A DNA stretch of 7,168 bases from a virus. Taxonomy: Duplodnaviria > Heunggongvirae > Uroviricota > Caudoviricetes. The notes below the pieces were generated by a model that did not search any database, was not told the origin of the DNA, and saw only the letters and a program-made list of their open reading frames with translations. Of this stretch, positions 4,611 through 4,731 are shown piece by piece (position 1 is the stretch's first letter; the number at the start of each line of letters is the position of its first letter). Made by a program: the position numbers and the translations under genes. The stretch lies in IMG/VR virus record IMGVR_UViG_2724678985_000019; one strand, given 5' to 3'.

Positions 4611-4731
4611 GTTGGTTCAGTTGGTTCAGTTGGTTCAATTTGTAAAGAGTATTGTTTTTAAAAGAATTATTCGCAAAAAGTGAACCAACACACCCCATTT
4701 TTGAACCAACAAAAAGAGGCCGTGAACCAAC
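4611..4731. promoter_or_regulatory. Iteron array: three tandem GTTGGTTCA copies plus three inverted TGAACCAAC copies phased at 21 bp
   Basis: Exact 9-mers at 4611-4619, 4620-4628, 4629-4637 (head-to-tail) and the inverted 9-mer at 4681-4689, 4702-4710, 4723-4731 (21-bp centre-to-centre, two helical turns). Lies between Icd-like copy 2 and the perC-like start, overlapping the perC upstream region. Confidence 0.6.

Follow-up and report, generated by a model that had tools for sequence, protein, structure and literature searches.

The repeat array at positions 4611 to 4731 of the analysed DNA stretch (7,168 nucleotides, in the following called the window) is best explained as one module of a PICI-type (SaPI-like) satellite origin, a reading to which sequence comparison gives a probability of roughly 85 %. 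It would be the second module of such an origin, orphaned in E. coli O111 and with a Pri-Rep protein as its predicted ligand. Class-A Pri-Rep proteins consist of a zinc-ribbon/TOPRIM primase joined to a self-loading helicase (DUF927), and their C-terminal end is the part expected to bind the DNA. If Pri-Rep works as SaPI Rep does, its molecules would occupy both opposed sets of iterons, melt the AT-rich centre and load as helicases. In this family the origin usually comprises two modules in inverted orientation. Module 1 begins about 15-45 bp past the pri-rep stop codon; module 2 either abuts module 1 or stands 1-10 kb off with accessory genes in between, and after it come a conserved TATA-rich flank and the next gene, often perC. 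According to this model the window holds module 2 only, pri-rep and module 1 having been lost in O111:H- 11128.

Array anatomy and neighbouring genes

Three tandem and three inverted copies of a 9-mer, an AT-rich spacer and a phasing of 21 bp had been described in the first-pass annotation, and all of this was confirmed (Table 1). The start-to-start spacing of the TGAACCAAC copies is exactly 21 bp. The spacer contains 79 % A+T in comparison to 53.7 % for the whole window and carries a conserved CTTTACAAATT on the minus strand, as seen in a comparison across genera. If up to one mismatch is allowed on both strands of the window, seven matches to the 9-mer are observed where 1.99 are expected, and none of 200 dinucleotide-preserving shuffles of the window attained this number. 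The six exact 9-mers all lie inside 121 bp. Chance or slippage as the origin of the repeats was rejected. DnaA boxes (TTWTNCACA), IHF and GATC motifs were not detected between positions 4500 and 4900 of the window, an Rfam scan (E up to 1) and a tRNA scan of the window gave no match, and a full-text literature search for the 9-mer returned only unrelated primer or oligonucleotide matches.

Table 1 Positions of the iteron array, its flank and the neighbouring genes in the window
Feature	Position	Strand	Remarks
C5 cytosine methyltransferase gene	541-1611	+	convergent with the HNH endonuclease gene
HNH endonuclease gene	1590-2249	-	
pRiA4b ORF-3-like gene	3147-3689	-	PF07929, E=1e-42; downstream of perC
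orf72 paralogue, small ORF	3810-3995	-	62 % identity to the 72-aa copy; the pair flanks perC
PerC-family gene	4293-4574	-	Pfam PF06069, E=3.7e-30; immediately downstream of the array
Conserved module flank	4575-4610	-	minus-strand sequence ACCTTTTTGCTTATCTATATAATCTGAGAGGCAGAA; continues into the perC ATG
TATAAT hexamer	4593-4588	-	in the conserved flank, between array and perC ATG
GTTGGTTCA iteron triple, tandem side of the module	4611-4619, 4620-4628, 4629-4637	+	exact, head-to-tail
AT-rich central spacer, 43 bp	4638-4680	.	presumed DNA-melting region by analogy with SaPI/PICI origins (PMC9371898, PMC6092414)
Inverted iterons	4681-4689, 4702-4710, 4723-4731	-	exact 9-mers, TGAACCAAC on the plus strand
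Unannotated 72-aa ORF (orf72)	4806-5024	-	upstream of the array; no Pfam match
AlpA-family HTH gene	5249-5434	+	Pfam PF05930, E=1.9e-13; divergent from the orf72-array-perC unit

The small ORF upstream of the array, orf72, sits where Pri-Rep would be found in a canonical origin. It lacks an annotation in the O111 RefSeq record, its probable start is an internal Met (4997), and the only family match of orf72 and its paralogue is phrog_7271, to which no function is assigned there. In many related loci and satellites homologues of orf72 are located downstream of the origin, and PerC homologues follow the origin after 170-860 bp in many related loci. The pRiA4b ORF-3-like gene is conserved together with perC in several E. 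coli island variants. Farther away, the methyltransferase/HNH pair (locus L001, 9627-13049) lies between an IS1203 copy and the satellite remnant and is probably a restriction-modification-like cargo.

Homologous modules in E. coli and other Enterobacterales

The window has 100 % identity to NC_013364.1 (E. coli O111:H- 11128), and many other E. coli genomes match the region at 100 % identity as well. In strain 11128 the array locus is a degraded island of 31 kb at tRNA-Thr (thrW), which contains a truncated integrase, two IS1203, a CbtA/YeeU-type module and the C5-methylase/HNH pair and continues with pRiA4b-ORF3, orf61, perC, the array and alpA, beside ykgL. Compared with strain 97-3250, O111 has its perC segment inverted relative to thrW and lacks the pao-ecp region. 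The 31 kb of the island revealed no gene for a primase or a helicase. The O111 chromosome has a single match to the array region, as have other O111 genomes; judged only from the lack of a second array match, a class-A pri-rep seems to be missing elsewhere in the O111 genome as well. Pri-rep and module 1 have evidently been lost from this rearranged, IS-ridden island and the distal module has been kept, and without a class-A Pri-Rep provided in trans the O111 array is probably inert. The distal module was found in 561 of 5,426 complete E. coli genomes, the 3' end of pri-rep together with module 1 in only 364. Because of this difference, orphans like that of O111 can be put at roughly one third of the E. 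coli carriers, an estimate from the counts and not from a per-genome pairing.

Individual E. coli strains show further changes around the module. In Combat13F7 (L087, 351-386) four tandem copies instead of three are present, corresponding to a slippage of 9 bp, and in Ec-050 (L088, 2248-2945) an IS1A is inserted between the flank of the triple and perC, the array itself being intact. Ec1120 (L006; sites at 17473-17576 and 9052-9172) encodes a primase of the DUF5906 type, 3' of which stand iterons of its own (TGGTAYAGGT), and carries in addition a non-cognate GTTGGTTCA module 2 by perC, in which one copy is degenerate (TGAACTAAC). This locus is an example of module shuffling and, possibly, of the decay of an orphan.

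Intact relatives of the O111 island are found in CH4784, which carries 1.3 kb of the window at 100 % identity, and in 97-3250, which carries a variant. Both islands are arranged in the order integrase, AlpA-like HTH gene, antA/ash, gene of the 918-aa Pri-Rep, cargo, array and perC, the cargo between pri-rep and the array comprising 8-10 kb (DUF2824, ejection-protein genes, Abi, IS66). A second cluster of the 9-mer lies directly 3' of the 918-aa TOPRIM+DUF927 gene, about 26 bp from its stop codon. When this pri-rep-proximal cluster is reverse-complemented, the window array can be aligned with it; the shared parts are the tandem triple, the spacer sequence ATTTGTAAAG.GTATTGTTTT and also the phased copies. 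The island thus possesses two inverted copies of one module. Among the E. coli island variants homology stops at about position 4732, which is the outer edge of the third phased copy, and thus the variable cargo begins exactly at the module boundary.

Outside E. coli, a sensitive DNA search matched the array alone (window 4592-4711, 81 % identity), namely in a Klebsiella 'phage' record and in several Klebsiella plasmids. The Klebsiella array is part of a capsid-encoding satellite of about 16 kb with major capsid, portal, prohead protease, Icd-like and KilAC genes, in which a 280-bp region with 11 exact 9-mers is located directly 3' of a 711-aa DUF927 gene. One E. coli strain shows the same arrangement. 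In the capsid-encoding satellites of both Klebsiella and E. coli the two modules stand together, directly 3' of the DUF927 gene.

One scan of species-representative genomes yielded 77 loci with Pri-Rep homologues, and 57 Enterobacterales homologues with a readable 3' flank and an intact reading frame form the basis of the survey. An iteron cluster of a defined class begins about 15-45 bp after the pri-rep stop codon in 55 of these 57 loci, the remaining two having only weak or unclassified repeats at that site. Seven iteron classes can be distinguished, A (TGAACCAAC, about 40 loci), B (TGAGACAAC, 5 loci), C (TAACCCGT, 3 loci), D (GAACCGAC, 5-6 loci), E (TACCCGAC, 1 locus), F (TAACCCAC, 1 locus) and G (TTATCCCA, 3 loci). 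All seven have one geometry in common, which consists of two to three tandem copies at 9 bp, an AT-rich centre and inverted copies. The first inverted copy follows the tandem set at 52-63 bp from start to start, and the next ones are placed at +11, +21 and sometimes another +21. The homologous modules of about 40 class-A loci contain the tandem triple at 9-bp spacing. In about half of the loci a second module abuts the first in mirror orientation (phased copies, AT-rich centre, tandem triple); about 17 loci apparently have module 1 alone, within the flank available. Read toward perC, the window array corresponds to the second module. A separated second module with the spacing and the flank of the window array lies 2-9 kb downstream in eight loci of other Enterobacterales taxa (Lonsdalea, Rosenbergiella, Chimaeribacter, Pantoea, Serratia, Leclercia and Cedecea), and a ninth one was found about 1.1 kb downstream in an Erwinia MAG (L068), a locus too short for the full-length survey comparison.

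The register of the copies was compared in eight distinct arrays from E. coli, Rosenbergiella, Pantoea, Leclercia, Cedecea and the Erwinia MAG. The spacing 21, 21, 52, 9, 9 is identical in all eight. Mean pairwise identity reaches 96 % in the iteron columns and falls to 46 % in the 12 nt that separate one phased copy from the next; the AT-rich centre is at 70 % and the flanks are at 51 %. The 9-mer and its phasing are thus both conserved in related islands, which is what the first-pass annotation had proposed to look for. The array can be regarded as far beyond chance and as being under selection, because of the shuffle count, the fixed spacing and the difference in identity between the iterons and the stretches separating them.

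Two further motifs accompany the modules. Past the last phased iteron of module 1, at a distance of 20-30 bp, lies the class-independent motif TTTyCTGGCTGG(c/t). Exact copies of it stand at +148 to +170 after the pri-rep stop codon in 19 of the 57 loci, comprising classes A-E (loci L009-L067, e.g. L015:12920-12935), where the background is 0.089 per 450 bp. The motif may mark a primase start site or some other element common to these origins. Beside the window array it is absent; a related CCTGGCTAGC is present at 5030-5045 (-), just upstream of orf72. In five genera (L019, L026, L027, L032, L066) the direct repeat GTAAGACAnnGTAAGACA precedes the separated module 2 at a distance of 20-30 bp from its phased side; it is absent from the window.

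Candidate binding protein and alternative functions

The 918-aa Pri-Rep contains a primase zinc ribbon, a Toprim and a DUF927 domain (Pfam). Its helicase part matches the structure of the SaPI 'pathogenicity island protein' (Rep) (8tch_A, E=1.8e-11), and residues 7-361, the primase, align with P4 alpha (33 % identity, E=2e-41), the rest being unrelated to that protein. Over the helicase and the C-terminus, the DUF927 protein of Klebsiella has 71 % identity to that of E. coli. Related Pri-Rep sequences (55 proteins) were compared by pairwise identity, without a correction for phylogeny. Pairs of the same and of different iteron classes separate only at residues ~867-907, with identities of 0.78-0.82 versus 0.44-0.51; elsewhere in Pri-Rep the gap is at most 0.18. 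The class-A proteins possess the patch GRGYQRKS-PRI-DGRQ (QRKSPRI) and the class-B proteins, whose helicase is 91 % identical to that of the E. coli protein, the patch GRGYQGRV--RE-DGRQ (QGRVRE), and other C-terminal patches are found in classes C, F and G.

Since the iteron class co-varies with the last ~50 residues of Pri-Rep, this analysis points to the C-terminus as the iteron reader. In SaPI Rep a C-terminal winged-helix domain recognises the iterons (PMC9371898), and by analogy the Pri-Rep C-terminus may be a winged helix as well. A search of its profile against the PDB sequences gave chance matches only, and hhalign against P4 alpha (probability 0.15 %) revealed no similarity. The AlphaFold2 model of the 918-aa Pri-Rep, which was built with 30 homologues, all at least 79 % identical, is unusable (mean pLDDT 44, C-terminus <50). 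In principle, the iteron specificity could reside in some other gene closely linked to pri-rep.

The earlier proposal of an iteron array for cooperative binding by a regulator or a replication initiator gains support from the homology of the array to the origin modules beside pri-rep. AlpA, PerC and an absent primase/initiator had been named as candidate binders. The last is favoured by the position of homologous arrays 3' of pri-rep and by the C-terminal co-variation; AlpA and PerC do not match the iteron classes. It is accordingly very improbable that the array is an operator for one of the neighbouring small regulators (AlpA-like, PerC-like or orf72) which controls perC. Such a function would fit the position of the array next to perC, orf72 and the AlpA-family gene, and in the PICIs of E. 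coli AlpA is known to act as an activator (PMC6092414). However, PerC proteins 92-93 % identical to that of the window adjoin class-B TGAGACAAC iterons (L015, L018), class-A arrays exist without perC or orf72 beside them (L003, L005, L089), the array stands in capsid-encoding satellites of Klebsiella and E. coli where perC does not adjoin it, and AlpA homologues with identities of 26-47 % are encoded in loci of five classes (A, B, C, D, G) without any match to the iteron sequence, which tracks the Pri-Rep C-terminus instead. Virtually no weight is given to the idea that the repeats are arm-type sites of the island's tyrosine integrase or excisionase and thus the relic of an att site. Short repeats of either orientation do serve as arm sites in P4-type attP regions, according to the annotation of the P4 record, but the array is internal to the island, neither at its ends nor next to int, no tRNA or core sequence is found near it, and the position of the clusters after the pri-rep stop codon in nearly all surveyed loci speaks against such a role.

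Besides firing as an origin, module 2 may serve as a cis enhancer or as a handcuffing site. It might also act mainly in transcriptional control, with Pri-Rep on the triple switching the downstream promoter, here that of perC, and with little role in replication. As the main function this is unlikely; such a role could also coexist with origin function. In its favour, a TATA-rich flank (TTTTGCTTATATATA) always stands between the triple and the next co-directional gene in six of the seven classes, the ACnnTTTTGCTTATATATA flank following the triple in A, B, D, E, F and G and not being seen in C. Different downstream genes follow this flank in other satellites, and for this reason it is best assigned to the module and not to perC. 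A similar element, ATTATAT(A/T)G(A/C)TA, occurs at 4588-4599 and 5023-5034, immediately upstream of perC and orf72, which suggests a shared -10-like promoter element of both minus-strand genes; moreover, the ~17 loci mentioned above seem to manage with module 1 alone. The distance from the array end to the perC ATG is 36 bp, and the tandem triple would cover a -35 position relative to the TATAAT hexamer; an overlap of the array with a putative perC promoter is plausible. Nevertheless, neither a consensus sigma-70 promoter nor a terminator was detected in a scan of 4400-5300, usage of the TATAAT would leave a perC leader of only ~7 nt, and the full two-sided origin anatomy with AT-rich centre and phased copies would be needless for a simple operator.

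Relation to known origins and meaning for satellite biology

Several families of replication origins invite comparison with the array. SaPI replication origins are reportedly the subject of work by Ubeda et al. from 2007 and 2012. Their iterons, 6-12 in number, directly follow rep; two or more stand on either side of an AT-rich centre, the two sets facing opposite ways (PMC9371898), and SaPI Rep self-loads at the origin (PMC9371898; Qiao et al. 2022). For the PICIs of E. coli the same organisation was described on the 3' side of pri-rep (Fillol-Salom et al. 2018; PMC6092414), where the pri-rep-ori of EcCICFT073 is a functional replicon and some islands encode PerC variants (PMC6092414). The module of the window resembles these origins in its short iterons, which form two opposed sets around an AT-rich region (3 + 3 exact 9-mers, 43-bp spacer). 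In the relatives the rep stop codon is directly followed by the homologous module, the Pri-Rep helicase is homologous to SaPI Rep, and PerC belongs to the known cargo of E. coli PICIs. An initiator of the SaPI Rep family with C-terminal iteron specificity is indicated by the comparison of relatives, the protein itself being absent from the window. In contrast to the published origins, the module of the window is without a rep gene, a 72-aa ORF lying upstream, and is the orphaned second one of two inverted modules. This counts against the PICI reading, as an adjoining rep gene is part of the published definition; a location immediately 3' of rep is found for module 1 of the relatives, and for module 2 where it abuts module 1. 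Furthermore, module 2 of the relatives can be up to ~10 kb away from pri-rep, and the iterons of the window are 9-mers, whereas the quoted SaPI iterons are penta- or hexanucleotides.

The similarity to P4 that had been noted in the first-pass annotation amounts to an analogy. In P4, crr is located directly 3' of the alpha gene and ori 4.7 kb away (annotation of the P4 GenBank record), each cluster has iterons in both orientations with tandem pairs at 9-bp spacing, and the zinc-ribbon/TOPRIM primase is homologous to the Pri-Rep N-terminus. Two separated clusters, one of them 3' of the primase-helicase gene, are likewise present in the intact relatives (8-10 kb apart in E. coli L005 and L008, 2-9 kb in eight other loci, ~1.1 kb in L068). 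However, the repeats are not the P4 octamer, as had been stated correctly: the type-1 iteron TGTTCACC of P4, which alpha binds, is missing in the window array, and GTTGGTTCA and TGAACCAAC are both absent from P4. Of an alpha-type initiator (TOPRIM, D5-like helicase and C-terminal origin-binding domain) only the primase aligns, helicase and C-terminal domain of alpha being unrelated in sequence to Pri-Rep, and crr consists of two direct 120-bp repeats and is not an inverted copy of ori.

Iteron plasmid origins of the Rep_3/RepA type (pSC101, F, RK2, P1) contain direct repeats of 17-22 bp, DnaA boxes and often IHF sites, and distant extra iteron clusters can act there in copy-number control (handcuffing). 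The array has in common with them the repeated, here putative, initiator-binding sites beside an AT-rich unwinding region. It differs by its 9-mers in inverted sets, by the lack of DnaA box, IHF and GATC motifs and of an adjacent rep, and by an initiator which is itself a helicase; direct iterons of 17-22 bp as in a Rep_3-type oriV are not present.

As a stranded module of a satellite origin the element is of a known kind, and an origin in a PICI remnant is not surprising. The two-module layout split by cargo is a modest new detail; no published description of the second inverted module, the cargo separation of ~10 kb or the recognition pattern with seven classes was found, and the nearest precedent for the separated layout is P4 ori/crr. 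A more speculative and rather doubtful extension is that the origins of Enterobacterales PICIs and capsid-encoding PICIs are inherently bipartite with cooperating modules, that the intervening space serves as a cargo site and that orphans are fired or titrated in trans. If this is true, the two inverted modules would cooperate via looping, double-hexamer loading or handcuffing, as in P4 ori/crr, and the space between them would be a preferred insertion site for cargo (Abi, ejection-protein genes, IS), of which up to 10 kb would lie inside the origin. An incoming class-A satellite could then fire or titrate orphans in trans and thereby amplify or silence their neighbours, including the virulence-regulator homologue perC.

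For the EHEC O111 island, a formerly unexplained repeat can now be annotated as a probable stranded satellite origin for which a predicted family of binding proteins is named. For the Pri-Rep family, the seven iteron classes tied to a C-terminal patch of 6-10 residues suggest a simple recognition code, and its origins commonly appear to come as a pair of inverted modules, between which accessory genes can lie. This may be of use for the annotation of satellites and their remnants, for the prediction of replication cross-talk or incompatibility between co-resident satellites, and for the design of tests of how self-loading helicases use the iteron geometry.
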